Below, one piece after another: positions 1 through 64,000 of a DNA stretch of 64,000 nt (positions are counted from its first letter, which is position 1; the number at the start of each line of letters is the position of its first letter). The stretch lies in IMG/VR virus record IMGVR_UViG_3300042934_000869; one strand, written 5' to 3'. The notes beneath the pieces are model-generated. The model did not search any database and was not told where the DNA came from. It saw only the letters and a program-made list of their open reading frames with translations. The position numbers were made by a program, and so were the translations under genes. Source of the DNA: an uncultured virus (IMG/VR IMGVR_UViG_3300042934_000869). Its lineage: Duplodnaviria > Heunggongvirae > Uroviricota > Caudoviricetes.

Positions 1-1
1 A

Positions 2-3000
2 TGTATTCCCACTACCATCTGGAACATAATATAATGCTTCTTCTTTAGGCCAAGAGCCATCTCCGCTAGGAGGTTTACCTATATTATAATTCTTCTCATT
101 GGTTGATGGAAAATAGAAGTAATTATTATTCTCTTGATTATTGTCTCCTCTAATTGAATATAAATATTTATCAAGAGTCTTACTGCTGTCTACAATACTT
201 CCTTCATAGTAGGTATTAGTAGAGTCTACTACTCCTTTTAACGAATCTTTCTTCACTAAGACCATATAATTATTACCGTTACTTATACTTCCAGTTTCTC
301 CAGTACACACATAAGTTTGGCCATCTATCACATACTCTTGCCTTACTTGTATTGAACTAATTGAATTATTTTGTCTAGCTACTACTCTAACTCTGGTAAC
401 TCCATTTGAGGTTTCTGAATCTAAATTCTGATCTATACCTTCTGATATGTATGAATCATTTGAGCCAAATGATTTGTACAGCACACCAGTTTTATCTATT
501 ACATAATTACCGTATTCTACAGCTCCAGAATCTCCCATCTTTCGTCCTTTTATGTAAGTAAAAGTTCTTCCCTTTGCTAGCTTAGCATACCAATCATCTC
601 CACTAACTGAGAATATAGATTCTCTTGCTGAATTTCCTTGTATGAATTTTGATCTGTATTCTTGAGAAAATTTTAGCTGTTCAACAATGCTGTCTAGTTC
701 AGTTGGTGTATAATTTCCAGTACTAAGAATTGTTACTTCTGGACACAGATATCCGCTAACACTATAGTTAAGGTTATTTGTTCCATAGATGTAATTTAGT
801 AATGCATTTGATAACCCTGTATTACTATCCCACCATTTTCTTAAATCTGGATCTGTTGGTCTTTGATTGAAGAAGTTAGACATTTCACTTGCAGATGGAT
901 TCGTTGTTCCAAAATACATATCTCTTAAATTGGATATAGTTTTGTTACTTAGGTAATTAGTATTTGGTATAACTACGTTCCAATTTACAACTAAATATAT
1001 TGGATTTGTCATTCCTAAATCTTTTACTATATTTCTATACACAGTCGAAGATATGTTACTTGTATGTAACATTGAATAAAATTTTCTAGTTGTTTTTTCT
1101 GAATTTTTATCATTAGGATCATCAGTTTGATTTTTTCTAACATCTTCTATCCATGATACATACGTCCTATCTATTACTGATTTAGAATCATAAGACATTA
1201 TACTTTGAAGACCTTGATATTTTGCTATATCAGACGTTCCGTTACTTCCTATATAAATCTTATTATCCCACATTGAATCTAAATATGTGTTGGACATTAA
1301 CCTTGCTATTATACCCATATTGTAATAAACTTCTCCACCTATGCCATTTACAATATTATCATTGGTGGATATTACTTCATTACCTATTAGAGCTTTTTTG
1401 TTATCATCTAATAATACTGCTCTAGTACCTGTATCAGTATTCATCAAATATTTATCATCTAGAGCTACTATTTCATCTGATATTGAGTTGTTTGAACTTG
1501 CTCCTTGTAATGCAGATTTTGGTAAATAGTTTGTCACTTCTTTTGATGAATTTTCTACTTTTGCTATTGTATCTACTTTTGATACCAAAGCTTTGTCTGC
1601 ATCTAATACTGATACGCCTGAATCAATCATAGCTACTGCCGTAACATCAGATGGTGCTCTTACAATAAATATAACTTTATGAGCATCTTCTCTAGCTCCG
1701 TCATCACCCTTTTTGATTTTGTTTACTGAACTTATTTTGATGTTAGCTACTGGATTTGAAGTAGTATCCGGCTTTAAATCTTTTACTAATGTTCCTTTAT
1801 ATAAAAAATTTGAACTATCATAGAATACTCTTGTTACTTTATATTCTTTATTAGCTGATAAATTATCTCGTATACTTATAGCATTTGTAGATAATAATCC
1901 AAATAAATTAAATCCTACATCTTGTTGAGGATTTATTTCTTGTACTTCTGTACTTGAACGTATGTCTACACCTTTATAAAATTCTAGAGTTTGTTTATAC
2001 ATTCCTTTCTCTAACCAATAATTTTCATTGTCAGTTAATTGGACTTTGGAGAAATCTACTCTTGCATCTTTATTAGCTATCCTATATATTAGCTTAATAA
2101 GATACTCCTTTGTAAGTCCATCGAATAATTCTGAGAACTCTTCTTTATTCTCGAAATCAATTATCCCTTGAGAAATTAAATACATAACAGTCTTTTTTGT
2201 ATTATCATCTAACTTACTAATATAATCTACTCCATATTTGTATGTTATTATTTTAGATTCTAGCTCTGACATATTGTCTTCATTAACTCTCATTATCTTT
2301 TCTATAAGTTTTAAAAACTCTATAGTTGATATTGAATTTGACATGAAATAGTCTGGTGTCTTTGAATTGGTCTGTACCTTGTTAAGATACTTAGAATCCT
2401 TAAATCCTTCAATGGGAAGCGACTGACCTAGGGGTTGTCCACTACCTTCTGTACTATTTTTAAAAACCTCATAGTTACCTAATTCTGGTGCCCATAAAGG
2501 AAATCTGTTTCCCTGCTTATATTCGTTTATAAAATCTAGGTTGCTAAATTCTGTTATTGATATAAATCCTTTGTCTAATAAAGTTCTAAAGTATATTTCA
2601 TAAACGTTTGGTGATGTGTAAACATTATAAGACCCTTCTCCAAAATCATAAGATTGGTTTATCGAATTTAATTCACTTGACTCTGATGATTTGGAATTTA
2701 TTATTATAGGTCTAGAACTTTGCACACCGAAAAATGCTTTAGATAAAGACATAATAGCATCTTCTTTCCTAGTATAATCTTCCGTGGAAGATAGTAAAGG
2801 ATTTGAGACTGGATTAGTTGATATACTAACTTGGTCAGACTGGAATGTATAATCTTTACTTATTATATCATGCTCTTGTAACCAAGCTACTTCTTCTTCG
2901 CTATCTCTTATATTTTTATATTCGCTGTAATTATCATATAATATTTTATCAGATTTAGTATTTATAGCTTTTCCTATATTCTGTAATGATTCTACAGAAT

Positions 3001-3133
3001 TCTTATATGTACTATAGTCATTCTTATTATTTAGAGACTCTATCACAGTTACAGTCATTGCATTTGCAATTATAAAGTTTGGAATTAGTAGGAATCCTGT
3101 GAGAGCTTTAAAGAATAGATTCTTTTTATCCAT
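2..3133 (-). CDS. Large secreted cell-surface protein with SLH-like repeats (>1040 aa, runs off the window start; absent from the ORF track)
   Basis: ATG at 3133 overlaps the upstream gene end. Starts MDKKNLFFKALTGFLLIPNFIIANA (signal-peptide-like). Every segment I translated is open, including the window edge (...WPKEEALYYVPDGSGNT). SLH-like segments: EEVAWLQEHDII..DYTRKEDAIMSLSKA, YFRTLLDKGFI..ISTIEFLKLIEKI, TVMYLISQGII..GLTKEYLIKLIYRI. Confidence 0.8.
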   Translation of the reverse strand, partial: MDKKNLFFKALTGFLLIPNFIIANAMTVTVIESLNNKNDYSTYKNSVESLQNIGKAINTKSDKILYDNYSEYKNIRDSEEEVAWLQEHDIISKDYTFQSDQVSISTNPVSNPLLSSTEDYTRKEDAIMSLSKAFFGVQSSRPIIINSKSSESSELNSINQSYDFGEGSYNVYTSPNVYEIYFRTLLDKGFISITEFSNLDFINEYKQGNRFPLWAPELGNYEVFKNSTEGSGQPLGQSLPIEGFKDSKYLNKVQTNSKTPDYFMSNSISTIEFLKLIEKIMRVNEDNMSELESKIITYKYGVDYISKLDDNTKKTVMYLISQGIIDFENKEEFSELFDGLTKEYLIKLIYRIANKDARVDFSKVQLTDNENYWLEKGMYKQTLEFYKGVDIRSSTEVQEINPQQDVGFNLFGLLSTNAISIRDNLSANKEYKVTRVFYDSSNFLYKGTLVKDLKPDTTSNPVANIKISSVNKIKKGDDGAREDAHKVIFIVRAPSDVTAVAMIDSGVSVLDADKALVSKVDTIAKVENSSKEVTNYLPKSALQGASSNNSISDEIVALDDKYLMNTDTGTRAVLLDDNKKALIGNEVISTNDNIVNGIGGEVYYNMGIIARLMSNTYLDSMWDNKIYIGSNGTSDIAKYQGLQSIMSYDSKSVIDRTYVSWIEDVRKNQTDDPNDKNSEKTTRKFYSMLHTSNISSTVYRNIVKDLGMTNPIYLVVNWNVVIPNTNYLSNKTISNLRDMYFGTTNPSASEMSNFFNQRPTDPDLRKWWDSNTGLSNALLNYIYGTNNLNYSVSGYLCPEVTILSTGNYTPTELDSIVEQLKFSQEYRSKFIQGNSARESIFSVSGDDWYAKLAKGRTFTYIKGRKMGDSGAVEYGNYVIDKTGVLYKSFGSNDSYISEGIDQNLDSETSNGVTRVRVVARQNNSISSIQVRQEYVIDGQTYVCTGETGSISNGNNYMVLVKKDSLKGVVDSTNTYYEGSIVDSSKTLDKYLYSIRGDNNQENNNYFYFPSTNEKNYNIGKPPSGDGSWPKEEALYYVPDGSGNT

Positions 3134-3533
3134 ATTTCCTACCTACTTTTAGCAATATAGGGAGGTCTGGAAACGCTACTAAATAGTCTGGATTCTCTTC
3201 CATTATTTTTATTTCATAACTCATAAAATCTATAGAGTTTAATGTTTCATCTAAATATTCCTCATATCTCCTATCAACATCTATGTATGCACACTTAACG
3301 TTATCTGAAGATAACTTTCTATCTAAATGATATAATAAAACTAGTTTTAAATCTTCTATAGTTTTCATTCTATGAACTAATTCCCTGTCTAATTCTTTCT
3401 GTTTATAATCTCTAAATAGTGAGGTTTTAGATATTGCTGACCTAGTTGCCACAACTATTCTCTCTAATGGTTTTAGTATATCTAGGTCAATTTCTTTCTC
3501 TATATCAATTTTCTCTCTTACGAATACTCTCAT
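3126..3533 (-). CDS. Hypothetical protein (135 aa)
   Basis: Overlaps both neighbours in the same orientation; no motif recognised. Confidence 0.7.
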   Translation of the reverse strand: MRVFVREKIDIEKEIDLDILKPLERIVVATRSAISKTSLFRDYKQKELDRELVHRMKTIEDLKLVLLYHLDRKLSSDNVKCAYIDVDRRYEEYLDETLNSIDFMSYEIKIMEENPDYLVAFPDLPILLKVGRKYG

Positions 3534-4737
3534 TTACTAGATCCTTAAACGAAGTAGAAGTTATAAATGAGTTTTCTTTGCTTGAAGATTCTGATACAAC
3601 TTCTCTATTTATTTTAGCGTTTTCTATTCTAGTAGAATTTTTAACTTCTTCTATAACTTCTTCTTCCTCTATATTCAACTTAGAATAATTTTCCTTAACG
3701 CCCTTTTGAATTAATTTAGCACATAATATTAAGCTATACTGTAAATCTGATAATTCTGAATCTAATCTTAAGTCTGATAAAATTCTATAAACTTTCATTA
3801 AGTTATTAAATCCTACTGTTTTTGCAAAGGACTTATCTGTAGGCTTTAAACTAGTTTGTTTAAAGCTAATATTCTTAGATAGGAAACAGCAATCCATTAT
3901 ATAGTCTTTAGCGTTAGTTAAGAACGTTCCTATTGGAGACATGTCAAGTATTTCTGATAGAAAATTTAGGTATGTCGACATATCTGAGTAAGACTTAAAT
4001 AGAGTTCTTAAAGATTCATCAGACACTCCTCCAAAAAACTGAGACAACTCTTCTTCACTAAACTTGGGATTATTTTTTATAAAATCAAAAGTATTTGCTA
4101 TTACTCTAGGATTTCCTCTGCTTGAAGTTTGTATAATAGATTTAACTTCTTTGGTTAATCTAACACTGTTATCCATACATAATTTATCTATTAATAACAT
4201 AGAGTTAGATGATGTTAGAGAATCAAATCTAAAGACTAATGCTCTACTTCTTATATCCTTTATAATGGAGTTGATGTTAGTAGTGCATATCATTATGTAC
4301 ACATTTTCTGGTATTCTTTCTAAGTCCTCTAGCATAGAAGATTGTAAATTTTTATTAAGTGTTTCGAATAGTTCGAATATAAATACTACTGGCTTATCCC
4401 CACTTTCTATTTTAAAAACTTCATTTATAAGTTCTCTAACTTGCTCAAAGCTAGTTATGTGAGATATATCTTTTTTTATTAGTGTACTGCTTTTACCTTT
4501 AGAACTCATTGCATTTAAACCCGAAATACATTCACGACACTTAAGACACGGCTCTTCGTTTATTGGTGATTCGCATCTTATTCGTAAAGCAGTGATTTCA
4601 GCAGTACCAGACTTACCAGTTCCTGACGGTCCGAACATAATAGAGAACTTAGGAAAAGTACCTGTCTGAACAGACTTGGTTATTGTGTTTAATGTAACTG
4701 CATTTCCAATAATGGCTTTATATTGATTCAGCCTCAT
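3505..4737 (-). CDS. dnaX: DNA polymerase III gamma/tau-like clamp-loader AAA+ subunit (divergent)
   Basis: Walker A GPSGTGKS, zinc module RCE..EPCLKCREC, IRSRA (SRC-like), GNPR sensor 2. Walker B reads FIFEL instead of IIDE. Confidence 0.85.
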   Translation of the reverse strand: MRLNQYKAIIGNAVTLNTITKSVQTGTFPKFSIMFGPSGTGKSGTAEITALRIRCESPINEEPCLKCRECISGLNAMSSKGKSSTLIKKDISHITSFEQVRELINEVFKIESGDKPVVFIFELFETLNKNLQSSMLEDLERIPENVYIMICTTNINSIIKDIRSRALVFRFDSLTSSNSMLLIDKLCMDNSVRLTKEVKSIIQTSSRGNPRVIANTFDFIKNNPKFSEEELSQFFGGVSDESLRTLFKSYSDMSTYLNFLSEILDMSPIGTFLTNAKDYIMDCCFLSKNISFKQTSLKPTDKSFAKTVGFNNLMKVYRILSDLRLDSELSDLQYSLILCAKLIQKGVKENYSKLNIEEEEVIEEVKNSTRIENAKINREVVSESSSKENSFITSTSFKDLVNESIRKREN

Positions 4738-4799: not shown

Positions 4800-6701
4800 T
4801 TATGAATAGATTAAGCCTGATATAGTAGCTTCTAAATTAGAAAGTTCTTTAGCTCCTAATCCTTGTTCTACTTCAAGATTTGTTGTTTTACCTTTCATGC
4901 TGTTTAATAAGATTCCTACTGCAACCTCATTTGACATGTTTACTCTAGTAGAAAGGTCATTTTGCTTTTCTCTAGTCTTAGTAACTTCTTTAATAACATC
5001 AGCAACTGTTTTACCGCTAAGTACTTTTCTGATTTTCTCAAATCTTGGAGATACTTGTGGATCAGCTTTAAATAATTTATCTACTTGCTCTTCAGTTAAT
5101 CCGAATTTATCGTAATCTTTTCTTGAAGGATTCTTCATTACGTCATAGCTTATGTAGCTTAAAGTCTTACCTGATTTTGTGTTGTCAACTAAAGCTCTTA
5201 TAGCTATTTCTGGATTAGTGTATACTTCTTTAGCATCATAGAATTTACCAACTTCTAAAGGCATCTTAGGATTTTTTGCGATGTAAGCTGAAGTGTATCT
5301 GTTTTCAGTAACATTTCCCTCTTTGTCTTTAATTGCATCTTCAGCAACTAAAGCTTTAGATTGTTCTGAAAGTTTTGAGTACTTGCTTCCATTAGTAGAA
5401 GTTTGGAATATTGGGTAGAATAATGATAAGTTAGCTTGATCGATCTTTCTGTCATCTTTTATGATGTCAGTTAAAGATTCAGTTAAGAACACTTTTCTTG
5501 GAAGGTAATTTCCTTCAATGATCGGTCTCTTTCTGTTACCAACTGAGAATACAGTTCTTGTAGTTGGTTTTTCTTTTCTTAAGAAACCTTGTACACTTAC
5601 TTTTAAAGTGTCTGCTTTTTCTCCTAATATTTCCTTATCTTCTTTGATTTCTCCATCGAAGAATGAAAGTATCATAAATGCTAATTCATCTTTTGATTTA
5701 GATAATGTTACTAAGTCTTGTTTTGTAGTATCTGGTTCTGGAGCAGTTTCTCCTAATAAATGATCTATAGTAACTAATCCACCTACTGGGATTGAGAATA
5801 TTCCACCTGTTGGAGATGATGGTGCTGATTCTTTAACAACAAGAACTGAAACTTGTTCAAAGTATTTTGATTGAACTTTTTCTCCTCTGTCGTGAGCTTG
5901 TCTAATAGCTGCTGAAACATCTGCTTTTAATCTTCTGTCTTGTTCATTAGCTGGTAGTACTGAAGCTGTTGAAGAAACTATCTTCTTATCATTTAGAGTA
6001 GTGAAAGCGTGGAACTTACCTCTAGCTCTGTTGAATGCATATAATGCGTGAGCTTTCTTAACTTCTGCTCCTGCCGCACTTTGAGTTATAGCACCTAATA
6101 ATTTCTCATTCTTTTCTTTCTTTCTTCTCTTTTCTGCTTCTCTTTCTTCTTTAGTCTTTGCAGGTTTTGTAGTATCTGTAGCTTCTGCTTCAAATGCTTT
6201 AGAGTCTACTACACCAGTTTCTACCTTACCTTCATTTTTCTCAACTTCTTTTAATGCTTCTTCGAATGCATTATTGTTATCTGCCATTTTGTTATCCTCC
6301 CTTTGACTTTCAATAATTTGATTTTTTAGTACTTTAGTTCTTTCTTGCTCCTTTATCAGGGGCTCATTGAAAACAGGTGATTTCTCAATCACACCATCAT
6401 CATCATTCTGGAATAGCTCGAATTGAGTTATCATTTTATTCCTAGGTGCAGTTGTCCACAAGAAACCTTCTGAGTCATATGTAAATACCATGTTATCATG
6501 AGTAGCTACTAAAACTGCATTGTCAGCAATTACTTTCTTTTTCACAGTTACTCTCTCCTGAGGAGACAACTTCTTGAAATCACTTAAGCTGATACATTCA
6601 GTTTTTTGTTTAGATACAACTATCCTTGATGAGTCCTTTGGTATTACATTAGACTTTTTCAGGTCTGTTATTTTCAACGATTTAGCTATCAACACTATCA
6701 C
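4800..6701 (-). CDS. Hypothetical protein (633 aa; strong internal in-frame start at 6287 giving 495 aa)
   Basis: Long ORF bracketed by the promoter motif and a terminator. RBS GGGAGG before GTG/TTG at 6695/6692, and again before ATG at 6287. Confidence 0.8.
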   Translation of the reverse strand: MIVLIAKSLKITDLKKSNVIPKDSSRIVVSKQKTECISLSDFKKLSPQERVTVKKKVIADNAVLVATHDNMVFTYDSEGFLWTTAPRNKMITQFELFQNDDDGVIEKSPVFNEPLIKEQERTKVLKNQIIESQREDNKMADNNNAFEEALKEVEKNEGKVETGVVDSKAFEAEATDTTKPAKTKEEREAEKRRKKEKNEKLLGAITQSAAGAEVKKAHALYAFNRARGKFHAFTTLNDKKIVSSTASVLPANEQDRRLKADVSAAIRQAHDRGEKVQSKYFEQVSVLVVKESAPSSPTGGIFSIPVGGLVTIDHLLGETAPEPDTTKQDLVTLSKSKDELAFMILSFFDGEIKEDKEILGEKADTLKVSVQGFLRKEKPTTRTVFSVGNRKRPIIEGNYLPRKVFLTESLTDIIKDDRKIDQANLSLFYPIFQTSTNGSKYSKLSEQSKALVAEDAIKDKEGNVTENRYTSAYIAKNPKMPLEVGKFYDAKEVYTNPEIAIRALVDNTKSGKTLSYISYDVMKNPSRKDYDKFGLTEEQVDKLFKADPQVSPRFEKIRKVLSGKTVADVIKEVTKTREKQNDLSTRVNMSNEVAVGILLNSMKGKTTNLEVEQGLGAKELSNLEATISGLIYS

Positions 6702-6724
6702 CTCCCATCTCTTATTAACTCACA

Positions 6725-6758
6725 TTTATATAATCTAAATACGAGAGTTTTAGGGGTT
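6725..6758 (-). promoter_or_regulatory. Element-specific promoter-like motif, copy 1
   Basis: AACCCC-N20-TATATA upstream of the 633-aa gene. Confidence 0.55.
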
Positions 6759-6796: not shown

Positions 6797-7420
6797 CTAT
6801 GAGTTTTTTAGATTTTCTCTTATCTCCATATACTTGTCAATTATACTATCCAAAGCATCTAATGTTTTCTGTTTTGCTGTAGAACTTTTAGACTCTATAT
6901 TGATACATACTTTTTCGGAGTCTAAATCCTCCTTTGTACTTGCTGATACTGTTACATCACAATATCTAGCGGACATTCTTTGAAATCCCTTTAGGTTTAT
7001 ATTTAATGATTCTAGTCTCTTGGAATTGTAATCAGATGATTTAAAACCAGAGTTCCTATCAAATACTATTGTTAAATTTACAGTATTCTGTTCACCTACA
7101 GTGTGAAGTAAATCTTTATTTTCTTCTACTTTTATATCAGGTGTATTTAGATTTTGAGAATTTAGTACACCTCTGAATGTGTATTCCTGTACAAAAGGGA
7201 AATTCACATTAGGGTCTATCTCAAAATTTAAATCAGCTAAATCACTAGAAAATGAAACCATGTCTAATACTGCCTTACCAGGCTTATATAAGGTACTGCC
7301 ATCTGATAATTTAAATGCAATAGGTTTTACCTTCATCGAAGATTCAATAAGCATTTGTCTTATTAGATTACTGAAACCAAGTCCTGTGTTTTTATCTACA
7401 TTAAAATCTAGTATCACCAT
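6797..7420 (-). CDS. rpoA: RNA polymerase alpha-subunit N-terminal-domain homolog lacking the alpha-CTD
   Basis: NTGLGFSNLIRQMLIESSMKVKPIAFKL resembles GFGTTLGNALRRVLLSS..GAAITAVKI; LTIVFDRNSGFKSSDYN resembles MELTVEKGRGYVPAEEN; EKVCINIESKSS..KQKTLDALDSI resembles DKLTLEVETDGS..PEEAL..AAKIL. Confidence 0.7.
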   Translation of the reverse strand: MVILDFNVDKNTGLGFSNLIRQMLIESSMKVKPIAFKLSDGSTLYKPGKAVLDMVSFSSDLADLNFEIDPNVNFPFVQEYTFRGVLNSQNLNTPDIKVEENKDLLHTVGEQNTVNLTIVFDRNSGFKSSDYNSKRLESLNINLKGFQRMSARYCDVTVSASTKEDLDSEKVCINIESKSSTAKQKTLDALDSIIDKYMEIRENLKNS

Positions 7421-7908: not shown

Positions 7909-8979
7909 TTAAAAATCCTTTACGTTAATAGTTTCAGAAAAACTATTTACTCTCTTTAATGATAGGTTATTATCTGCCATGTATACTCCATTTTTATAAT
8001 CTCTACCAAACTGATAAAGCTCTTGACTTAGTTCCTCTAAATCTGCACCTTTCTTATATTTAGCTCCCATTTTTGATAATGTACCCATTGACACTTTATC
8101 ATCTACTATTTGAGCATAATCCATAAGTAGCTGTATGTCTATACTATTTTTAGTTCCTAACTTGTAACCACTAGGGTCGTCACATGGTATTAGTTTTGGG
8201 AATACTGTTTTAATCCTTCTGTCTAATAATTCCATATCTTTCTCAGGTAAGTTTTTAGTAGCTAAGAATTTTCTGAATAGATCTTCGCTTCTAGTAACTC
8301 TTCCAGATAGTCTTCTATTAAAAGAATCAAGAAGCTCTATATACTCTTTATACAACTCAAATCCTTTAGTTCCATCTGATAATTTAAGTGGCTTAACATT
8401 ATCTGAGACATCGTAGCATAAAGCTTTAAATACAGATATAGTATTAAACTTAACAGGATATCCATTATCCTTATGTCTTAATACTTCTGAGAAATTCATC
8501 CAATTTACATTTAAAGTGTTAGTATTAGATGTTCTATACTCTACTCCTTCTTCGTCTACATTATGACATAAATCATAATCAGAACCATTTACAACTATCT
8601 TGTGGTCTTTACAAACTGGGTAGAATTGTTCTACCATACTAAAAATGTAAGAATCAGCTTCTCCTTTTCCTTTATAACAAGGTACTCCGCATTTAGATAA
8701 AAATCTAAATAGGTAATCAGCTTGAGCACCTATCGAAGGATTTCGTTTTCTATTTGATTTATACCCTTCTAATAGAGGTTCTGATTTTCTCCATTGGGAG
8801 TCAAATGCACAAGCAACACCAGAGTCTACAATTAGCTCTGATACTAATTTTTTTAGAAAGAAATGTATACCACCTACTGGTAAATCTCTTCTTTCTATTT
8901 TATGGTATTTGGTAATCCACTCAACAGTGTTAAGATAACCATAGACATCAAATAATTGTATATCAAACAATTTAAGCAC
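7909..8979 (-). CDS. Stand-alone 5'-3' exonuclease / flap endonuclease (PolI N-terminal / T5 D15-like)
   Basis: Motifs CAFDS, GYKSNR, GEADS, GSDYDL, KALCYDVSDNV. Confidence 0.85.
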   Translation of the reverse strand: MLKLFDIQLFDVYGYLNTVEWITKYHKIERRDLPVGGIHFFLKKLVSELIVDSGVACAFDSQWRKSEPLLEGYKSNRKRNPSIGAQADYLFRFLSKCGVPCYKGKGEADSYIFSMVEQFYPVCKDHKIVVNGSDYDLCHNVDEEGVEYRTSNTNTLNVNWMNFSEVLRHKDNGYPVKFNTISVFKALCYDVSDNVKPLKLSDGTKGFELYKEYIELLDSFNRRLSGRVTRSEDLFRKFLATKNLPEKDMELLDRRIKTVFPKLIPCDDPSGYKLGTKNSIDIQLLMDYAQIVDDKVSMGTLSKMGAKYKKGADLEELSQELYQFGRDYKNGVYMADNNLSLKRVNSFSETINVKDF

Positions 8980-24653: not shown

Positions 24654-24657
24654 ATTT

Positions 24658-39248: not shown

Positions 39249-39289
39249 TTATAACATTCCCCTTTCTCATTGTATTGTTTTGTCACTGT

Positions 39290-47879: not shown

Positions 47880-47916
47880 ACTTTATTAACCCTCTAGTTA
47901 TTTAATGTAGCTTTGT

Positions 47917-48060: not shown

Positions 48061-48153
48061 ATTCTTAACTCCTTTACTAATTGATTGTCTTATTCATTAA
48101 TGAACAGAGTTAATAAGATAGCTCATGCTATAGTTATAAATATACGCTTATTA

Positions 48154-48184
48154 ACTATATTAACTAATAAAGAGCTATAGGGTC
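48154..48184 (-). promoter_or_regulatory. Element-specific promoter-like motif, copy 7
   Basis: GACCC-N20-TATAGT. Confidence 0.5.
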
Positions 48185-48219
48185 TGGCTCAATACACAAA
48201 CCCTATGCCTTTAAGTATT

Positions 48220-48366
48220 TTAAGATTCTACAATTTCATCTTCCTCGTCTATAGAATCTTCTTTACATATCGAATCTATTTTTGTCATAATGTAAATTAG
48301 TACGTATGTGTATAGTAATACTGATCCTAGCATTGCTGTAAGTCTTACTATTTCTTCTTTTATCAC
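48220..48366 (-). CDS. Small single-TM protein with acidic tail (48 aa), not in the ORF track
   Basis: MIKEEIVRLTAMLGSVLLYTYVLIYIMTKIDSICKEDSIDEEDEIVES; the GTG start overlaps the upstream TAG (TAGTG). Confidence 0.6.
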   Translation of the reverse strand: MIKEEIVRLTAMLGSVLLYTYVLIYIMTKIDSICKEDSIDEEDEIVES

Positions 48367-55787: not shown

Positions 55788-56499
55788 TGTCTAACAGAGT
55801 CTTAGCATCTTTCTTAACACTCATATATGTTATTACTTCACTATTATCTTCTAAGACTGAAACTTCTACGTTTACTACTGTTATTCCTTCTTCCTCTAGA
55901 TTATTAAATACTTGGAATGGAACCTGTATCTTATATGGTTGTTTTTTATAGGTAGCTTCTAGCCAATAGAACTCTACACCTTTACCTGTAACTGCTCTGT
56001 ACTTTTTGTAGTTTACAAAATCAGTAACTGTTTTGTATTCTTTAACCTTATAGTTAGCATCTATTGGAACTTGTTGTAGATTAGTTGTTATTACAGAATC
56101 TTTGACTGGCTCGCTTTTATTCTGTGTCTCATTAGATATATTCAAATTGGGTATACCCGCTTGAGTATCAGTTTTTTGATTAGCCAGAGCATTTTGTCTG
56201 GCTATCTCTTGTTCCTCAGATAATCTTTGTTCTTCGTACTTTAGAGCCTTACGATGATTTATAAATGTTATTGAACCTACGGCCAGTGCACCTGTCACTA
56301 CTACGCTTATACATGCTACGAGTATTATTTTATTTTTCTTACTTGAGGTATCTTTTTCTCTTCTAAGTGAGGTATGTCGAGATGTAGATATTACATCATC
56401 CATCTCTCCTTTATCTATATCTAACCCAGTGTCATCAAATTCGTAGTCTTCCTCATCTATCTCTACATTTTTCTTTCTGTTTTGGTTGAACCCTGCCAT
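55777..56499 (-). CDS. Bitopic membrane protein (240 aa)
   Basis: Acidic N-terminus, one TM (IILVACISVVVTGALAVGSITFI), beta-rich C-terminal domain. Confidence 0.78.
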   Translation of the reverse strand: MAGFNQNRKKNVEIDEEDYEFDDTGLDIDKGEMDDVISTSRHTSLRREKDTSSKKNKIILVACISVVVTGALAVGSITFINHRKALKYEEQRLSEEQEIARQNALANQKTDTQAGIPNLNISNETQNKSEPVKDSVITTNLQQVPIDANYKVKEYKTVTDFVNYKKYRAVTGKGVEFYWLEATYKKQPYKIQVPFQVFNNLEEEGITVVNVEVSVLEDNSEVITYMSVKKDAKTLLDNGR

Positions 56500-59400
56500 A
56501 TATCATTTCCCCCTTTCTTTGAACTATTTAATTCATCAAGTAGATTATCTAGAGAGTCTAAGTCTGCTTTATATCTACCCGCAAGCGTTGTTGTACCTAT
56601 AGGAGTTTCTATCATGAATATATCTCCTCCAGACATCATATATGGTTTTAGGAATTCTTTTATCTTTTCAGAGTTACTTCTTTTAGTTAGATAAACTTTT
56701 GTTACTTTGTTTAATCTAGTAATATGTTTGAACTCTTTAGGTTTAACTTCAAATAATTTTGAGTCTTCATCCTCAGTATCGTCAAAGTACATATTAGATA
56801 CATGTTCGTACATTTCAGATTCATTTTCATCAAATGACCAGTAATCTAATTCAGCATCTCCTGTTTCTTCTAATTCTATCTCATCTAGGTTATCAGATTC
56901 ATCGAACATATCTTCTAAATCAATTTCTACTTCTGACACTACTGTACTTGCAATTCTCATATCTGAGTACTCTTTAGCTGTGTATACTTTATCATCCACT
57001 AATACACTAACATTCTCTAACTCTTCTTTTATTAGTAATGTGCATAGACATGATAGGAAGTTATCGGTATCATCTGTAATATCTTTCTTTTCCTCAAAGC
57101 TATAAATCTTTCTTGGTTCATAGGCTCTGGAGTTTTCGTAAGTGTAAGACCTTACCATATAATTAGTGAAGTTCTCTGCTATATTTTTTATGTCTAAGCA
57201 TCCTTCTCTAAAATTAGGTTGTATCTCATCCATTACTTCTAACACTCTAGTTCTTTTATACTTCTCTATCATTGGCATGATAATTTCTTTAGGATTATCT
57301 GTCCAACTATTAAGTTCGTAAGTACTAAACTCTTTATGCATTCTCTCTAGTAGTAGAGCTGGTATTTCATTTATATCTTTTTTACAATCTCCCCATGAGT
57401 GACCAAAGTTTAATCCTACATAGTACTTGGTGTGACCCTTTACTCTTACTACACATGACTCTTGCACTATCTTAGCTATTAATCTTGGGTCTATAGATTT
57501 GTGTATTGAGAATAATAATTCATCGTGTATATACATATGGAATATTATCTTATCTCGTATTCCATACTTTTCTAAAGTTGCAGTGAATCTCTTTAATAGT
57601 AGTCTATATAGGTCTGCTGTTCCTGATTGTATAGGGTAATTACCTGCTTGTCTACCAATTGCTTCTTCTCTTTTTCTATCGCCCAATACGTTGTTTAAAA
57701 TGAAGTATCTGTAGAACCCATTCTTGTTATAAACCATAGATACTACATCATCTTCTTTTAATCCTAAGAAGTCTCTTAAATTCTTAGGTAAATCTCTAGG
57801 TATTAACGCACTCTCTCTTATAGACTTTAAGAACTTCATTGTCTTCGCTTTTGCTGATTCAAACTTTGCTTTTAGTATTCTAGTTTGAAGTGCGTTCTCT
57901 TCATTGTATACTGTGAATAATCTCTCGGTAAGTTTAAAATCAGAAAGTCCATACGGTATACCGAATCCAAATGCCTTAGCCATTGTTCTTAGTAGCTTAG
58001 ATATTAAATGTGGTAGTATACCAAACATTAGACTAGCATTGGATGTATGAACATCACTCTCAGGATTATCTGACCTTTTAATCCCTTCCATATCTCCTGC
58101 TTCAGAAGTAAACCATCTATCTTCTACTTGAGCTAAATCCCAATCTCCCAAATAATAATCTTCATTATAGGGAATAATAGCATCCTTAACAGATTTCTTT
58201 AATATCTGAGCCGCTGATGATAATCTTCTTGTTTCTACATTTGTAGTTGATATTCTCTTGAATAATCTACCTTCTAAATCTTCTTCTTCCATTGGTTTAT
58301 AGTAGGTGTCATACTCTTTTGTTAAATCAGCAAATACTCTTAGCAGATAACATAAAGGATACTTATAACTATTAAACAACTCTGCTTTAACTAAAACTTC
58401 TCCATTATCTGATTTTATATCTTCTTTTAATATGTTAGATGATTTAGCATTCTTTTTATATAAAAGCTTTTGTATAGCTTCTTTATTAACTGCCGCATCT
58501 CCCTTTTTAGTTTTAACCAGTACTGGATACTTTAGTTGCTTATACATTACATGCCTAAGCTCATCGCCTTTTAATTTAAATACGTATCTATGACCTTCTA
58601 GACTCACATCTAGATCATCATCCATATCAAGTTTGCCATTCATCATCATAGTTACTCTATGAGATAACACTGCACCTACATATGAGTATATAGTTTCTTC
58701 TATAGTTTTTAAATCCTTTTTTAGTCTTCTATATACTACGTCTATTAAATCTACATCTTCTGTCATTCCATAGTATTCTGATTGTGCTGTTAGATACCAA
58801 GTTATTGGGTCTAACTGGGAGTATGATTTAAACATTTTATCCGACATTAATCCTCTTAGGAATTTAAAGATTTGTCTTGCTTGGTCAACGTCGGCACAAC
58901 CATATATACGAGCTACTTCTTCATCAGATAAATAATGAAATTTACCTTCATTACCCTTTCCTAGTAGTTCTCCTAATTCTGGCATTTCTACACCTAAGAA
59001 TCTTTTAACTAAATGTTTTAATCCTTTACTTCCTTTTATAACAGTTGGATTTATATTGAATGCCATCTGCAGTGTATCATGGTCGAAGAAGAATTGATAT
59101 CCTTCACTTAGAGTACCTCTGGAGTCGAATGATGAATTGTGACCTGTTAACTCATACCACTCTTTTAATACAGTTACTACCTCATTTATCTCATTGCCTT
59201 CTTCATCATAAATAAGTTCAAATTCAGTACTTGTCGCACCGTACTTAAATAGAGGGTATAATCTTTTTAGTACATATTGTAAGTCCACATTTTTGAAATA
59301 TTTCATGTGGAAGAACATTATACGTCCCATATCATCATCCCATGATAACTGTATGGTAGTCATAAAATCTTTACTTGGGTTAGTTGCTGATAAATCCAGT

Positions 59401-60170
59401 AAACCAAATCCAGTAGACTCTATATCGCAACCTATTAAAGTTTTTATACCATTCTTCTGATTCTCTATTATTTTTCTTATCATAGGAGTTACTGTATTAA
59501 CTTCAAATTCTACTATAGAGTGTATAGCTTTGTAATCTTTCTTACGAACTCCAGTATCTTTATCCCAGTACCATGATAAATCTATCATAGAATTTAATGC
59601 TTTAAAATCTACTTTATCAATTGAAACAACATCAGCATTATTTCTTACTTTTGCTTGGTCTATTGTTTCATAAGGTATTTTTTGTGGTATTTTTATTTTA
59701 AAATTTGATTGTAAGTTTACACTTATCTCTGGAGTACTAAATTCTAACTTAGAGTATAAACCTTCTTCTTGTCTAAAACTTACTGCTCTGCCACCGTATG
59801 AAGCTGTATAATCTCTTTCCGGTAGCGGATCAAATCTAGTCTCATTAACAAATATTGAATCTTTAGGGTACGAGAAGTCTCTAGCTTCAATGAATGCCTG
59901 CATTACTTTATCAAGTATAGGAGTTCTTCCGTAAGCTTTTATCTCTCCAGTTTTCTTAGACCTAGATATGCTTTCGGTCATATATTCAAGTCTAGATTTA
60001 CTTGTTAGCATCTTTAATGTCAAGCTATTTTCGTATCTAGCTTTTCCTAATTTTGCAAAATTCTCTGGATGTATTTCTGAGAATAAAAACCACCTTTGTG
60101 CACTTTTAGTATCGTCTAAAACTAGGAAGTATCTGAAATCTGAAATCTCTATATCAGAAATTAATCTCAT
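56463..60170 (-). CDS. polA: Family A DNA polymerase with 3'-5' exonuclease domain (likely the replicative enzyme)
   Basis: ExoI CDIESTG, ExoII GHNSSFD, ExoIII YGCAD; TRRLSS, motif A WDLAQVEDR, motif B RTMAKAFGFGIPYG, NYPIQSGTAD, motif C IHDELLF. Confidence 0.92.
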   Translation of the reverse strand: MRLISDIEISDFRYFLVLDDTKSAQRWFLFSEIHPENFAKLGKARYENSLTLKMLTSKSRLEYMTESISRSKKTGEIKAYGRTPILDKVMQAFIEARDFSYPKDSIFVNETRFDPLPERDYTASYGGRAVSFRQEEGLYSKLEFSTPEISVNLQSNFKIKIPQKIPYETIDQAKVRNNADVVSIDKVDFKALNSMIDLSWYWDKDTGVRKKDYKAIHSIVEFEVNTVTPMIRKIIENQKNGIKTLIGCDIESTGFGLLDLSATNPSKDFMTTIQLSWDDDMGRIMFFHMKYFKNVDLQYVLKRLYPLFKYGATSTEFELIYDEEGNEINEVVTVLKEWYELTGHNSSFDSRGTLSEGYQFFFDHDTLQMAFNINPTVIKGSKGLKHLVKRFLGVEMPELGELLGKGNEGKFHYLSDEEVARIYGCADVDQARQIFKFLRGLMSDKMFKSYSQLDPITWYLTAQSEYYGMTEDVDLIDVVYRRLKKDLKTIEETIYSYVGAVLSHRVTMMMNGKLDMDDDLDVSLEGHRYVFKLKGDELRHVMYKQLKYPVLVKTKKGDAAVNKEAIQKLLYKKNAKSSNILKEDIKSDNGEVLVKAELFNSYKYPLCYLLRVFADLTKEYDTYYKPMEEEDLEGRLFKRISTTNVETRRLSSAAQILKKSVKDAIIPYNEDYYLGDWDLAQVEDRWFTSEAGDMEGIKRSDNPESDVHTSNASLMFGILPHLISKLLRTMAKAFGFGIPYGLSDFKLTERLFTVYNEENALQTRILKAKFESAKAKTMKFLKSIRESALIPRDLPKNLRDFLGLKEDDVVSMVYNKNGFYRYFILNNVLGDRKREEAIGRQAGNYPIQSGTADLYRLLLKRFTATLEKYGIRDKIIFHMYIHDELLFSIHKSIDPRLIAKIVQESCVVRVKGHTKYYVGLNFGHSWGDCKKDINEIPALLLERMHKEFSTYELNSWTDNPKEIIMPMIEKYKRTRVLEVMDEIQPNFREGCLDIKNIAENFTNYMVRSYTYENSRAYEPRKIYSFEEKKDITDDTDNFLSCLCTLLIKEELENVSVLVDDKVYTAKEYSDMRIASTVVSEVEIDLEDMFDESDNLDEIELEETGDAELDYWSFDENESEMYEHVSNMYFDDTEDEDSKLFEVKPKEFKHITRLNKVTKVYLTKRSNSEKIKEFLKPYMMSGGDIFMIETPIGTTTLAGRYKADLDSLDNLLDELNSSKKGGNDIWQGSTKTERKM

Positions 60171-61216: not shown

Positions 61217-63427
61217 CTAAAACTTTATATTATCCCCAAGTTCGGATACTATATTTCCATCATTGTCAACTAAATATCCGTATTCGTGGACATAAAAACT
61301 CTGTATTAAAACAGGTTTACCTCCGTAAAATAAATACCCATGTACTTCTTCACATTGAGATTTATAGTTTGTGAATGAACTATTACTGTTCCTTAATTCC
61401 TTTGAGTAGTAAACTACAGCGGAAGCATTTATAACTCTTGGGCTTAAATTACTACTTAGTTCAGTCTCTATTCCATTCTTACTAAAATCTTTTACAAGAC
61501 TATCTATTTTTTTATTAACAAAATCTATTCCTATTTTACATTCATCGTATACTAAAGAATAAAATTCTTTTAACTGTCTGTTCAGAGCAGCCTGATCATA
61601 TACTGCACTTCCTAGTCTGAACTCATCAGATACTTTATTAAAGAATTGCAAGTCTTGTATACTTGATAATTCTGTTGGAAGTTTGGTTATGGCTCTACTA
61701 GATGAATCTCCTCCTAAATTTTGTATTAACTCATACCTATCGTTTGCTCCTGTTTTAATTCTTAAATCGCATAGTGCCTTCAATATATTTAATCTCAATG
61801 ATGCAAATCTTATATAACTTGAGAACAACTGCTCATCAAATGAGTATAGTAGGAACTTCTCCCTATATTTCTCTGGAACTAGCTTTTCGCACATGCTCTT
61901 AAATTGCTCATTAATTTGTATCTGATTATCACATACTTCTGTACCAACACCTTCTCGGTCGCATACTTTTAAAATCATTTTAAAAGTAGAAAGTACTCTC
62001 TGGTGCTCTTCATACGCCCATAAAAAGAATTTGCTCATATCTACTGTACTAACTGTAGCTATGTTATTTAGTTGATTCTTAACTACTTGCGATATACTTA
62101 AGAAACTAAATTCAGGTTTTGATTTTATAGATTCATATATTTCATCATTACTATATAATTGTCTGCTATACTCTTGAGAAGCTCCCTTTATTAAGGCACT
62201 TGTTATATCATAGCATTCTAAACAATCATCTAGACTAATAAATCTATCTATATAAATGTTAGTTCTGAATATGTCTGTTGGTATATCGAATATGTTTATT
62301 TTTTTAGAATTACAATAAGATATTAAATTTCTTAAAGATACCAGACCGTCTAATAATACCATAAATTTGTTTCTGTTCTCTTTATCGTATATAGCTTTGT
62401 CTCCTTCTTTTAATGAAAATAGAGATCCTTTGTTTTTAGATGATCTACTGCCTCCATCTATTATCCATATTGTTTCATATATGTTTCTTATAAGTTCTGG
62501 TGTTAGTATAGAATCTATTTGTTTATATAGCTCTATGCTAATTTCGTTCCTTATTCGATACGTTCCAATTCTGTATTCTGTTTCATATAAAGATTCCGGT
62601 CTTGATACTTTTATTGGTATAAAGAACTCATTCTCATAAAGAAACCTTTCTGCTTGTTTAGTATGCGTGGTTGGATTAAATTTATTCTGAATCCTATCTT
62701 TTAGAGTGTCTAGCTTAGACGTAACTTTGTATATTTTATAATTAGATACTAAATCCATATACACTGTTCCATCTGTTCTACTGTTAGCACTAAATAGTAA
62801 TTTACTGGATTCATAAATCTGTTTAATATCCTTCTTAAAATCAAAAGTAGCTTGTGTCTCTATAACTGACATTTCGCTCATAATTTCAAGACCTATTTCT
62901 CCATCTCCACCCCTAGTCAAAAGACCTTTTTCATTTATTAATTTACCTAAGTCTTGTCTTCTAGACTGTATAAAAAATACGAAGGATTGCCTTATAAACC
63001 CAATTGGATTAAAAGAACTATTTAGGTCGTATTTACTTTTAGAGTATAAAGAGAATCTTTCACTAAATTCATTTATGACTTCGTTTATATCATATTTAGC
63101 ATTCTTTAAATTATACTCTTTCCTTATTATTGGATTATATACTTTCTCTTTTATATAGTTTAAACTTAAGTAGTCTTCAAATAATTTTTCAATTCCATAT
63201 TTAAGTATGTACTCTTTTACCTTATATAGGAATCTATTTATGTCATTTCTATATCCATGAGTAGTTAAGAACTTCTTTAACTGCTCGAACCCATCTTCAT
63301 CAGATTTGAATGTTTCTGTAATTAACCTATCAAAAATTTTACTACAGCGTTCTTCATCTAGTAAAATCTCTGAAGCCATCTTTAGTTCTTGAACTCTAAT
63401 TTCACCTCTAAGTTCTCTCAATAACAT
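61217..63427 (-). CDS. Hypothetical protein (736 aa) with a possible sigma70 region-2-like segment
   Basis: GIEKLFEDY..DINEVINEFSERFSLYSKSKYDLNSSFNPIGFIRQSFVFFIQSRRQ. The CDS is secure; the sigma similarity is tentative. Confidence 0.6.
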   Translation of the reverse strand: MLLRELRGEIRVQELKMASEILLDEERCSKIFDRLITETFKSDEDGFEQLKKFLTTHGYRNDINRFLYKVKEYILKYGIEKLFEDYLSLNYIKEKVYNPIIRKEYNLKNAKYDINEVINEFSERFSLYSKSKYDLNSSFNPIGFIRQSFVFFIQSRRQDLGKLINEKGLLTRGGDGEIGLEIMSEMSVIETQATFDFKKDIKQIYESSKLLFSANSRTDGTVYMDLVSNYKIYKVTSKLDTLKDRIQNKFNPTTHTKQAERFLYENEFFIPIKVSRPESLYETEYRIGTYRIRNEISIELYKQIDSILTPELIRNIYETIWIIDGGSRSSKNKGSLFSLKEGDKAIYDKENRNKFMVLLDGLVSLRNLISYCNSKKINIFDIPTDIFRTNIYIDRFISLDDCLECYDITSALIKGASQEYSRQLYSNDEIYESIKSKPEFSFLSISQVVKNQLNNIATVSTVDMSKFFLWAYEEHQRVLSTFKMILKVCDREGVGTEVCDNQIQINEQFKSMCEKLVPEKYREKFLLYSFDEQLFSSYIRFASLRLNILKALCDLRIKTGANDRYELIQNLGGDSSSRAITKLPTELSSIQDLQFFNKVSDEFRLGSAVYDQAALNRQLKEFYSLVYDECKIGIDFVNKKIDSLVKDFSKNGIETELSSNLSPRVINASAVVYYSKELRNSNSSFTNYKSQCEEVHGYLFYGGKPVLIQSFYVHEYGYLVDNDGNIVSELGDNIKF

Positions 63428-63432
63428 TTATA

Positions 63433-63951
63433 TCACCTCCCTATCAACATAGTAGTTACTAGGTTGATAACATAACAGTAAGTAACTATTAGTAGACCTT
63501 TTTGTACCACTGACCTTTGTGTTCTTAAAGGTCTAAAGCACATTGCTATAAAAGACATTATAGCTAATGCTATTAAGCGTAATATCCATATAATTAAATT
63601 CTGTATGAGTATTAACAGCTCTTCTAGTATTTTAGCTATAATTCCTTTTATAGAATAAAACTTTATATTTTTCTTATTATCTTTGCCATATTCCACATTC
63701 CAAAGACCAGCTTTATTACTTTTCTTTTTATTACAATCTGGACATATCGCAACACAATTAAACACTCGGTTTATACCAAACCATTTAGATACAGGGAATA
63801 TATGGTCTACTTCCATATTATGTACTGTTAGAGGTTTTATGCATTGGGAACAAAAATAGTATCTATTTAGAATACCTCTATTGTGTTTAAGATATTCTCC
63901 TCTGGCATCAAACTTTTCCCTTTTCATCCTTGAATAGGATTTGTAGCCCAA
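63433..63951 (-). CDS. HNH endonuclease with C-terminal transmembrane helices
   Basis: CSQC..EVDHIFP..NCVAICPDCNKKK followed by two hydrophobic segments. Confidence 0.85.
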   Translation of the reverse strand: MGYKSYSRMKREKFDARGEYLKHNRGILNRYYFCSQCIKPLTVHNMEVDHIFPVSKWFGINRVFNCVAICPDCNKKKSNKAGLWNVEYGKDNKKNIKFYSIKGIIAKILEELLILIQNLIIWILRLIALAIMSFIAMCFRPLRTQRSVVQKGLLIVTYCYVINLVTTMLIGR

Positions 63952-64000
63952 AGTTTATCACCCCTTCTCCCCCTGAAAGTAATAACAGTCAGTAGCCTAG

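Follow-up and report, generated by a model that had tools for sequence, protein, structure and literature searches.

Introduction

Plasmids and integrative conjugative elements (ICEs) depend, as far as we know, on the RNA and DNA polymerases of their hosts, and multisubunit RNA polymerase (RNAP) is known to us so far only from cells and some giant viruses. Elements of the Tn916/ICEBs1/pCW3 type are 18–75 kb in size, use host polymerases and carry a recognisable relaxase. SPbeta-like phages of Bacillus and Clostridioides measure 125–135 kb and encode large serine recombinases, a polymerase of their own and the single-chain RNAP YonO. In jumbo phages the beta/beta' RNAP is split over several polypeptides and has no alpha subunit. 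The present study concerns a stretch of 64,000 nucleotides (hereafter the window) of IMG/VR record IMGVR_UViG_3300042934_000869, filed as an uncultured virus of the Caudoviricetes, and the family of large elements of Clostridia to which it belongs. The contig that carries the window is 160,102 bp long, and the window represents about 40% of an element of 160–190 kb.

Jumbo phages such as phiKZ and AR9 are described as having large genomes, an RNAP related to beta/beta' and much replication machinery of their own, being hence independent of host transcription (PMC7598289). The 'Hodors' (bioRxiv 2026; PMC12934698) are conjugative megaplasmids of gut Bacillota, larger than 300 kb and with a GC content of 44–47%, to which the preprint ascribes Rep_3 and ParA/ParB replication, SecYEG, trigger factor and a surface protein of more than 7000 amino acids (aa). 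In its text the term 'RNA polymerase' has 0 occurrences, and the single 'DNA polymerase' concerns a prophage (PMC12934698).

An initial annotation, made from the letters of the window alone, had placed it in neither a normal chromosome nor a typical phage and had called it a megaplasmid-like replicon of a poorly described class. This description fits the evidence from a closed circular relative, the 188,469-bp contig C57 of a Clostridium paraputrificum isolate (G001:C57), on which no rRNA, no ribosomal-protein cluster and no virion family was detected, which carries segregation, toxin–antitoxin, sortase/adhesin and type IV secretion system (T4SS)-like genes, and which has no close relative, phage genera with a virion module included, in the collections searched. 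On balance, we lean towards a giant episomal or integrative, probably conjugative element of Clostridia with autonomous transcription and replication.

Comparison with described systems

Of the published concepts found, the Hodors come nearest. They and the Clostridia family are both very large elements of the Bacillota without TerL which were overlooked or taken for huge phages. Both have a VirB4-type T4SS with a hard-to-recognise VirB6 and no canonical relaxase, together with sortases, giant surface proteins, ParM-type segregation and toxin–antitoxin genes (PMC12934698). In contrast, the Clostridia elements measure 160–188 kb, have an RNAP and a replisome of their own, carry their genes on one strand, and gave no Rep_3, ParB or SecY match in general family scans of the window and C57. 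Judged by the membership criteria of that class, the Clostridia family is not a group of Hodors, sortases, surface proteins and VirB4 being all that the two have in common on that count.

Unlike phiKZ and AR9, the family encodes beta and beta' in one chain (2393–2878 aa), a separate homologue of the alpha-subunit N-terminal domain (NTD) and a GreA-like factor; no virion module was found in it, and relatives integrate at attachment (att) sites. With the Tn916/ICEBs1/pCW3 type it shares a VirB4-type ATPase beside an NlpC/P60-type hydrolase, a polytopic VirB6-like protein, an ATPase of the FtsK/SpoIIIE family and, in some members, an integrase and an att site; it differs in its size (160–190 kb), in its own RNAP and replisome and in that no relaxase was detected. 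The SPbeta-like phages provide the nearest phage relative of the RecJ-like protein, YorK, at only about 25% identity, whereas they have recognisable virion genes and their YonO is not a full beta-beta' plus alpha enzyme.

Large Bacillus plasmids (about 215 kb in B. amyloliquefaciens/velezensis and about 350 kb in B. thuringiensis) are likewise mostly unidirectional and encode a family-A polymerase of more than 1100 aa, a DnaB-like helicase and a CHC2 primase. Identity to the window amounts to 22–24% over 45–69% of the polymerase, and the plasmid collection held no match to the fused RNAP beyond ordinary rpoB/rpoC. One of these plasmids, NZ_CP071971.1 of B. amyloliquefaciens (215.9 kb), carries a 1157-aa family-A polymerase (22% identity), a DnaB-like helicase, a CHC2 primase and ParB, and may be a distant analogue with the same lifestyle. 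No publication was found that describes a conjugative or integrative element of Clostridia with an RNAP of its own, though supplementary lists of related surveys might hold such sequences.

Layout of the window and relatives of the element

The window comprises 58 genes, 58/58 on the minus strand; the first open reading frame (ORF, 2–3133) is cut by the window start and 57 closed ORFs remain. All window coordinates given below refer to minus-strand features. About 97.6% of the window is coding, with overlaps in 23 of 57 neighbouring gene pairs and gaps of 0–20 nt in 20 more. The GC content is 0.28–0.32, and the GC skew of the plus strand is negative in 16/16 bins of 4 kb. AGGAG or GGAGG lies at positions −22 to −4 of 28 of the 58 ORFs, versus 4% at random positions. 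The unidirectional, overlapping genes and Firmicutes-type ribosome-binding sites of the initial annotation are thus borne out. It had counted roughly half of the genes as unrecognisable; many do lack a family, but the share is larger, since 38/57 proteins have no Pfam family at E ≤ 0.01, and 44/57 have no PHROG at E ≤ 0.001. Virion or metabolic genes, which it had not seen, were not found by Pfam, PHROGs or NCBIfam either. No tRNA genes were detected in the window and no Rfam family was matched.

Five relatives were recovered by an alignment-based scan of GTDB genomes: the C. paraputrificum isolate (48% identity), a Lachnospiraceae isolate, and metagenome-assembled genomes (MAGs) of Wujia, Lachnospiraceae and Clostridium. 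A single-sequence pattern scan of genome contigs had recovered none. No relative was found by a pattern-based search among 2.9 million IMG/VR contigs. In the phage and plasmid collections, the polymerase, RNAP and ATPase matched nothing but distant sequences (<30% identity) or host genes. The family is collinear, with a common core of about 100 kb; between the window and C57, collinearity extends over 55/57 closed ORFs (BLASTP E ≤ 1e-3, 24–59% identity) and the truncated first ORF (39%). The elements occur in at least Clostridium, Lachnospiraceae and Wujia genomes, and their GC content (30–32%, 33% and 43–46%) is host-like in every case, which suggests long association with each host after horizontal spread. 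In a search of sequencing runs, the window was complete in one soil metagenome, its probable source, and present as a small share (0.06) in one compost metagenome; no RNA run carrying it was listed.

The first approximately 127 bp of C57 are found again at 188342 of 188469, and the contig is therefore a closed circle of about 188.3 kb. ORFs of at least 100 aa occupy 171.5 kb on one strand and 5.5 kb on the other, and the GC skew of the coding strand never changes sign, being positive in all 5-kb bins. C57 has 226 ORFs of at least 50 aa, of which 135 + 36 were scanned with Pfam and PHROGs; for the remainder, the results for their window orthologues were used. At this hidden Markov model level, no terminase, portal, capsid, sheath, tube or tape-measure family was detected; 'tail fiber' (E 7e-4) and 'virion structural' (E 2e-4) labels were weak, and other such labels came through lytic or hydrolase domains. 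Genes for replication and chaperones include DnaK, DnaJ, a DnaB-like helicase, a DnaG zinc-ribbon ORF, an NAD-ligase-like protein, RNase H and a SNF2-type helicase. Surface functions are represented by sortase, adhesins and a 2276-aa repeat surface protein, this kind of cargo being abundant and variable across the family. An endolysin-like glucosaminidase (phrog_25820, E 1.3e-30) and the toxin–antitoxin-type and related genes Fic, HicA, HipA-like and HEPN are also present.

Transcription machinery

The RpoA analogue named in the initial annotation is a 207-aa homologue of the RNAP alpha-subunit NTD without a C-terminal domain (6797–7420). Its match to NF003517 is weak (E 5.4e-5), and a profile built from four orthologues matches bacterial RNAP alpha chains (best 4noi_A, E 5.7e-14); the identification holds for the N-terminal domain only. 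Its predicted homodimer scored 0.69, versus 0.00 for the best control, with runs agreeing in at least 95% of contacts and a predicted local distance difference test (pLDDT) of at least 81. Of 30 solved pairs 20 reached the score mark used, as did 1 of 23 single chains, and the pass may reflect the predictor's memory of solved alpha2 structures.

C57 encodes a GreA-like factor and, directly upstream of the HNH gene, a 2393-aa fused beta-beta' RNAP (Rpb2_6 E 2e-49, Rpb1 domains 2–5). The fused RNAP, a chain of 2393–2878 aa across the family, adjoins the DNA polymerase gene in 4/4 other genomes, and NADFDGD is intact in 3/3 relatives checked: C57, the Wujia contig G003:C37 (hereafter G3) and the Lachnospiraceae contig G004:C1 (hereafter G4). 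In the phage and plasmid collections no close relative of it was found, only ordinary rpoB/rpoC at 25–28% identity. On a host contig of the Wujia MAG (G003:C111), rpoB- and rpoC-like matches all fall within one 2585-aa open frame; host beta and beta' may also be fused, or read through, in that genome. The G4 element gave a Sigma70_r2 match (E 3.9e-10) and the G3 element a weak one (E 1.6e-3).

Several intergenic gaps show a hairpin after the stop codon, followed by AACCC ... TATAAATA ... GTG. The promoter-like motif, AACCC-N19-21-TWTAWA-N3-5-RTG (38 nt), consists of AACCC, a TATAAATA-like box about 20 nt further on and then GTG, a spacing approximately 3 nt longer than that of a standard sigma-A promoter. 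Counted with a pattern built post hoc from these same sequences, and therefore a lead only, it occurs three times in the window and eight times in C57, always on the coding strand, the other strand having 0 sites, versus shuffle means of 0.01 and 0.11, respectively. Ten of the 11 sites are intergenic, and nine of those ten sit 19–44 nt upstream of an ORF start. The window sites, all intergenic, are located at 39284–39321 (35 nt upstream of an ORF; orthologous C57 site 181453), 28424–28461 (28 nt upstream of the gene of a 459-aa protein; orthologous C57 site 8402) and 6721–6758 (19 nt upstream of the gene of a 633-aa protein). The C57 sites include 8402, 23873, 83944, 132481, 133594, 144269 and 181453. 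The motif was not seen in G3 or G4.

Replication and repair genes

The replication and repair set of the family consists of a family-A polymerase with proofreading, DnaB-like helicase, split DnaG, DnaX-like and delta-like subunits, ligase, RNase H, flap endonuclease, DnaQ-like exonuclease, RecJ, UvrD and SbcCD. The DnaX, primase, PolA, RecJ, UvrD and SbcCD analogues proposed for the window in the initial annotation all received family-model matches.

The principal gene is that of a giant family-A DNA polymerase of 1235 aa with a 3'-5' exonuclease region (56463–60170; PF00476 E 4.9e-28, phrog_17 E 8.3e-47). Invariant residues of its family include D249/E251 and D678-Q681-E683-R685 of motif A; motif B is at 728 and HDE at 881. 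About 40 specific homologues, with 31–49% identity, are located on contigs from metagenomes, the longest of which reach 230 kb. A second, shorter family-A polymerase-like protein of 600 aa (31163–32965; PF00476 E 5.2e-11), in which a simple motif search recovered only HDE of motif C, has a putative polymerase activity.

A DnaX (gamma/tau)-like AAA+ clamp-loader subunit is encoded at 3505–4737 (PF13177 E 4.6e-19, phrog_5846 E 4.6e-25, TIGR02397 E 1.6e-31; Walker A at residue 36). The 283-aa protein at 51190–52041, without Walker A, is a probable delta/delta'-like subunit: aligned by hhalign with a 24-sequence Clostridia HolA profile it reached 94.1% (E 1.3e-7, 222 columns), the highest value among 51 ORFs; the DnaX-like protein came next (87.7%), and no other ORF exceeded 4%. 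The delta subunit of the initial annotation is thereby supported through hhalign only, and a PDB profile search with this protein did not recover HolA. A DnaG-type Toprim primase domain forms a separate ORF (28466–29236; PF13155 E 7.5e-6, phrog_47 E 2.8e-11, TIGR01391 E 1.7e-12). In C57 the other part of the split DnaG, a CHC2 zinc-ribbon ORF (115832–116467), lies about 80 kb from the Toprim ORF, beside a DnaK-like gene.

Nucleases and helicases comprise a 5'-3' exonuclease/flap endonuclease (7909–8979; PF02739 E 7.3e-9, NF011547 E 4.9e-8), a DnaQ/RNase T-type 3'-5' exonuclease (41062–41844; PF00929 E 7.8e-9, phrog_192 E 6.1e-17), a RecJ-like ssDNA exonuclease (16527–18062; phrog_2484 E 1.2e-49, TIGR00644 E 1.3e-40) whose nearest phage relatives are of the SPbeta YorK type, and a UvrD/PcrA-type helicase (18059–20467; PF00580 E 5.5e-27, PF13361 E 1e-23, TIGR01073 E 1.4e-42). 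An SbcCD-like nuclease is encoded in pieces (22623–26908; AAA_23 E 1.3e-6, Metallophos E 8e-4, phrog_77 for the SbcC C-terminus E 2.1e-5, Rad50 NF003034 E 2.5e-8): the N-terminal head of SbcC/Rad50 at 25700–26908, SbcD at 24658–25728, two ORFs of 98 and 362 aa, and the C-terminal head at 22623–23279. This gene order is the same in C57, G3 and G4.

Secretion block and candidate transfer genes

The first gene of a T4SS-like block is the truncated ORF at 2–3133, which encodes the N-terminal 1044 aa of a giant secreted or membrane protein. Its signal-peptide-like N-terminus agrees with the secreted surface protein of the initial annotation. The protein is 39% identical over 1076 columns to a 1442-aa protein of C57 and has no Pfam, PHROG or NCBIfam match. 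Downstream of it, the relatives share eight large genes without family matches; for the window, this remainder of the block would lie outside, as predicted from synteny.

Structure models were made for two proteins, a 656-aa ATPase, which is the best conserved of these block proteins (C57 sequence), and an 806-aa window protein. The ATPase has a mid-chain Walker A, and its AlphaFold2 (AF2) model has a pLDDT of 76.5 (11-sequence alignment). By Foldseek the model matches full-length TrwK/VirB4 of R388 (E 1.8e-13, 614–655 columns, TM-score 0.49/0.41), followed by the VirB4 C-domain, HerA and TrwB; at sequence level, no VirB4 match was obtained in family scans or in a PDB profile search. The gene directly downstream encodes an N-terminal transmembrane (TM) segment and an NlpC/P60 domain (E 5e-10), and the pairing of VirB4 with an NlpC/P60 hydrolase is the typical layout and conserved core of conjugative T4SSs of Gram-positive bacteria (Firmicutes). 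Neighbours in C57 are proteins of 1442 and 1502 aa with signal peptides and three and six further predicted TM segments, respectively, those of the 1442-aa protein being C-terminal, and a 320-aa protein with two TM segments. The 1502-aa protein is a candidate VirB6-like component by its topology alone. For a 419-aa protein of the block, the PDB profile search gave no useful match, and ESM Atlas scores of 0.81 and 0.76 were uninformative.

The initial annotation had mentioned FtsK proteins in the plural. One of them stands, a FtsK/SpoIIIE-type ATPase that is a candidate coupling protein or DNA pump (33927–36044; PF01580 E 7.9e-19, phrog_1358 E 7.7e-34, Walker A at residue 126); by NCBIfam it matches EccC/EssC (E 6e-20) and FtsK (E 2.5e-14). 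The other, the neighbouring 806-aa conserved core protein (36051–38471; seven homologues found, AF2 pLDDT 79.6), was rejected as a second FtsK, as it has neither Walker A nor a fold match: Foldseek gave no match at E ≤ 1e-3 and no PDB profile was matched, while its best score in VIA (Z 6.9, a small 3-helix domain only) and that against the C-terminal domain of phi29 gp16 (Z 6.0) are both below the tool's stated noise level.

The actin of the initial annotation was recovered as an actin-like (Alp/ParM-type) segregation protein at 10402–11823 (phrog_691 'partition protein' E 5.7e-9; profile match to Alp12, 4apw, E 8.8e-5).

Integration of distant relatives

The extrachromosomal state proposed initially applies to the closed circular C57, but more distant members of the family are integrated in chromosomes. 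In G3 (28/31 and 68/71 selected ORFs scanned), positions of about 13–60 kb are host chromosome (RF-1, Rho, trigger factor, butyrate operon, MreB), a tyrosine integrase follows at 65,881–67,143, and then come element genes. An exact 24-bp repeat is present at 65,793 and 246,153, the second copy being the 3' end of a tRNA-Met gene that is followed by a host tRNA cluster. These repeats delimit an integrated element of 180.4 kb (G003:C37 65793–246176). Among its genes are those for a tRNA-Gln of its own, a second thymidylate synthase and TubZ.

In G4 (65 of 164 ORFs of at least 90 aa scanned), host genes (flagella, MutS/L, PBP2, Obg, His operon) extend up to about 143 kb, and a large serine recombinase (143087–144769) lies exactly at the host–element junction, with element genes beyond it. 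A second tyrosine integrase and a 10-kb patch of low GC (0.35) at about 290–300 kb suggest another small element nested inside. TubZ and a common sigma70-family gene are present in both integrated elements, and the latter gene is absent from C57. No recombinase was detected by family scans in the window or C57. As the distant members are integrated beside recombinases, the class is better called episomal or integrative than extrachromosomal in the strict sense; its members would be circular episomes in some hosts and site-specifically integrated in others.

Interpretation and alternative explanations

In the proposed mode of life, the element's own polymerase would transcribe the single-strand gene array from element-specific promoters of the kind described above, and its own replisome would copy the element unidirectionally, co-oriented with transcription. 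Actin or tubulin filaments would segregate the element, and transfer from cell to cell would proceed via a type IV secretion apparatus of Gram-positive type, in which the FtsK-like ATPase would act as coupling protein or DNA pump and adhesins anchored by sortase would provide cell contact. Some lineages would have gained an integrase and would act as giant ICEs.

A bolder proposal, which we put forward tentatively as plausible though short of probable, is that the family represents an undescribed class, a capsid-less 'conjugative jumbo element' combining the transcription and replication autonomy of jumbo phages with the transfer and maintenance gear of plasmids and ICEs, two features met until now only separately. 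The autonomy would lie in a complete, cell-like RNAP core (alpha2 plus fused beta-beta', a GreA-like factor, its own promoter type) and a full replisome. Transfer and maintenance would be served by the VirB4-type apparatus, the FtsK-like DNA pump, adhesins, actin/tubulin segregation and optional integrases. Reading and copying of the strictly one-way array of genes would both run the same way, perhaps matching the order of DNA entry into a recipient.

Several observations count against a conjugative element with autonomous transcription and replication. The fused RNAP would lie just past the end of the window, its presence there being predicted from synteny. C57 has no detected sigma factor, this gene being found in the G3/G4 clade only, and the promoter pattern has the post hoc origin already mentioned. 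The sliding clamp of the initial annotation was not upheld: with a DnaN profile from Clostridia, no hhalign probability exceeded 11% (57 ORF alignments), and in genome G001 the clamp family PF00712 matched only a host contig. General family scans of the window and C57 identified no replication initiator and no relaxase, although an HD-domain protein of C57 was not examined as MOBH and oriT was not searched. No TM anchor was predicted in the FtsK-like ATPase. About two thirds of the proteins are unannotated, and diverged virion genes could hide among them, such as a very diverged TerL or capsid folds among the roughly 100 unassigned ORFs of C57. Phage-like traits are also evident, namely unidirectional packing, the element's own RNAP, the glucosaminidase, an att site in a tRNA gene and a RecJ near SPbeta YorK.

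These traits lead to the first and main alternative, a temperate jumbo phage of Clostridia (prophage or plasmid-prophage) with virion and packaging genes too diverged to recognise, in which the secreted giants, wall hydrolases and VirB4/HerA-like ATPase would serve assembly, packaging, entry or lysis. Plasmid-prophages also use TubZ or Alp segregation, which is found here, and insertion at a tRNA gene, with a tyrosine integrase nearby, or next to a large serine recombinase would suit a prophage, as would the tight one-strand array, the PHROG matches of the replication genes, the endolysin-like glucosaminidase and the YorK-like RecJ. An RNAP of multisubunit type and a replisome are encoded by jumbo phages as well (PMC7598289). 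Moreover, the model of the 656-aa ATPase matches BFVD entries of Bacillus phage G (gp156, E 1e-15; gp155, E 4e-13) and phage JL (E 4.7e-14), and one further viral protein at E 8.8e-16, so that the VirB4 fold alone does not exclude a phage. These proteins of phages G and JL are 550–913 aa long and have a VirB4/HerA-like predicted fold. Their matches have a root-mean-square deviation of 9–25 Å, versus 8 Å for TrwK, and no sequence-level match of the ATPase was found in phage genomes. Against a phage also stand the alignment of the ATPase to VirB4 including the N-terminal domain, with NlpC/P60 next to it; the lack of any terminase, portal, major capsid, sheath, tube or tape-measure family in the closed 188-kb genome and the window; the results for IMG/VR (pattern-based) and for the phage records, where the polymerase, RNAP and ATPase have no close relative; and the sortase, adhesin and toxin–antitoxin genes. 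We regard this explanation as unlikely.

Alternatively, the element could be a giant plasmid or integrative element without self-transmission, its VirB4-like block, PilB-like and FtsK/EssC-like ATPases and sortase/adhesins being secretion, pilus or adhesion systems that benefit host or element, with spread by other means. The absence of a relaxase in family scans of the window and C57 (oriT not searched) is in keeping with this, as are the abundant, variable surface-protein cargo and the FtsK-like ATPase, which resembles EssC/EccC of type VII secretion at least equally and has no predicted TM anchor. Nevertheless, five small proteins near this ATPase, checked as WXG100-type substrates, have no WxG motif; the VirB4–hydrolase pairing is that of conjugative systems in Firmicutes; and the occurrence in Clostridium, Lachnospiraceae and Wujia with host-like GC implies horizontal spread. 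Such an element is, in our judgement, quite improbable. A giant non-tailed, membrane-containing bacterial virus, comparable to PRD1-like or large eukaryotic DNA viruses, in which an ATPase of the FtsK/HerA superfamily packages DNA and the membrane giants build a vesicle, is hardly credible: tailed-phage hallmarks were not found, the RNAP is cell-like and the replication set large, but the matches of the ATPase model to A32-like packaging ATPases are weak (E 1e-3 to 1e-4), far weaker than those to VirB4/HerA and limited to the P-loop domain, no capsid candidate was identified, and the VirB4-type N-terminal domain of the 656-aa protein is unlike the short packaging ATPases.

If the preferred reading of a conjugative, autonomous element is true, an element of conjugation type that brings along an alpha/beta-beta' polymerase and a replisome would blur the line between plasmids and viruses. 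It would provide a natural system in which to test why genetic autonomy evolves, be it for broad host range or for escape from host control or defence, and a compact orthogonal transcription system of Gram-positive type with its own promoter. As two carriers are cultured (the C. paraputrificum and Lachnospiraceae isolates), these questions are directly testable. Collections of 'huge phages' and MAG bins can conceal large non-viral elements, as was argued for a different class in the Hodor study (PMC12934698).

Other genes of the window

A PilB/GspE-type secretion/pilus ATPase, as named in the initial annotation, is encoded at 14162–15787 (PF00437 E 2.4e-22, TIGR02533 E 3.8e-22) and has a tetracysteine CxxC...CxxC at residue 432. 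A second T2SSE ATPase, with a ParA/AAA_31 protein and the two next ORFs, is confined to C57 (117473–122559), where they look like a cassette of the Tad/Flp pilus type. An HNH endonuclease (63433–63951; PF01844 E 2.3e-8), whose orthologues in C57 and G3 adjoin the RNAP gene, a NERD nuclease-related protein (30424–31188; PF08378 E 7.9e-9) and a transglutaminase-like protein with an N-terminal TM segment (30000–30503; PF01841 E 4.6e-5) were also found.

Conserved core proteins with no assigned family include a 633-aa protein (4800–6701; orthologues in C57, G3 and G4; no Pfam, PHROG, NCBIfam or PDB profile match), a highly charged 459-aa protein (27016–28395) with orthologues in all relatives, no PDB profile match and the promoter-like motif in front of it, and a 577-aa membrane protein (39325–41058; orthologues in C57, G3 and G4) with two TM segments (residues 185 and 204). 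The Pex24p match of the latter spans a hydrophobic region and was therefore judged spurious; this and the TcdB_N and ATP11 Pfam matches were rejected as weak, below the cut-off or in low-complexity or hydrophobic regions. A PDB sequence-profile search with a 430-aa protein gave no useful match. The 736-aa core protein at 61217–63427 has no known domain, and a 57-sequence profile of its family gave no PDB match and no consistent Pfam match. Its family counts 59 representatives (50% clustering, E ≤ 1e-3), a rough gauge of the diversity of the element class in metagenomes.

PADLOC, applied to 39/57 window proteins, called no defence system. Its similarities are generic, concerning the UvrD helicase (GajB) and an ABC/AAA head (GajA, PtuA, LmuB), two non-adjacent genes; a Gabija system was rejected, as the genes are not neighbours. 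The largest gap of the window (47663–48365, 703 nt) contains several small ORFs of less than 80 aa, some of them hydrophobic or glycine-rich, each with its own Shine–Dalgarno site.

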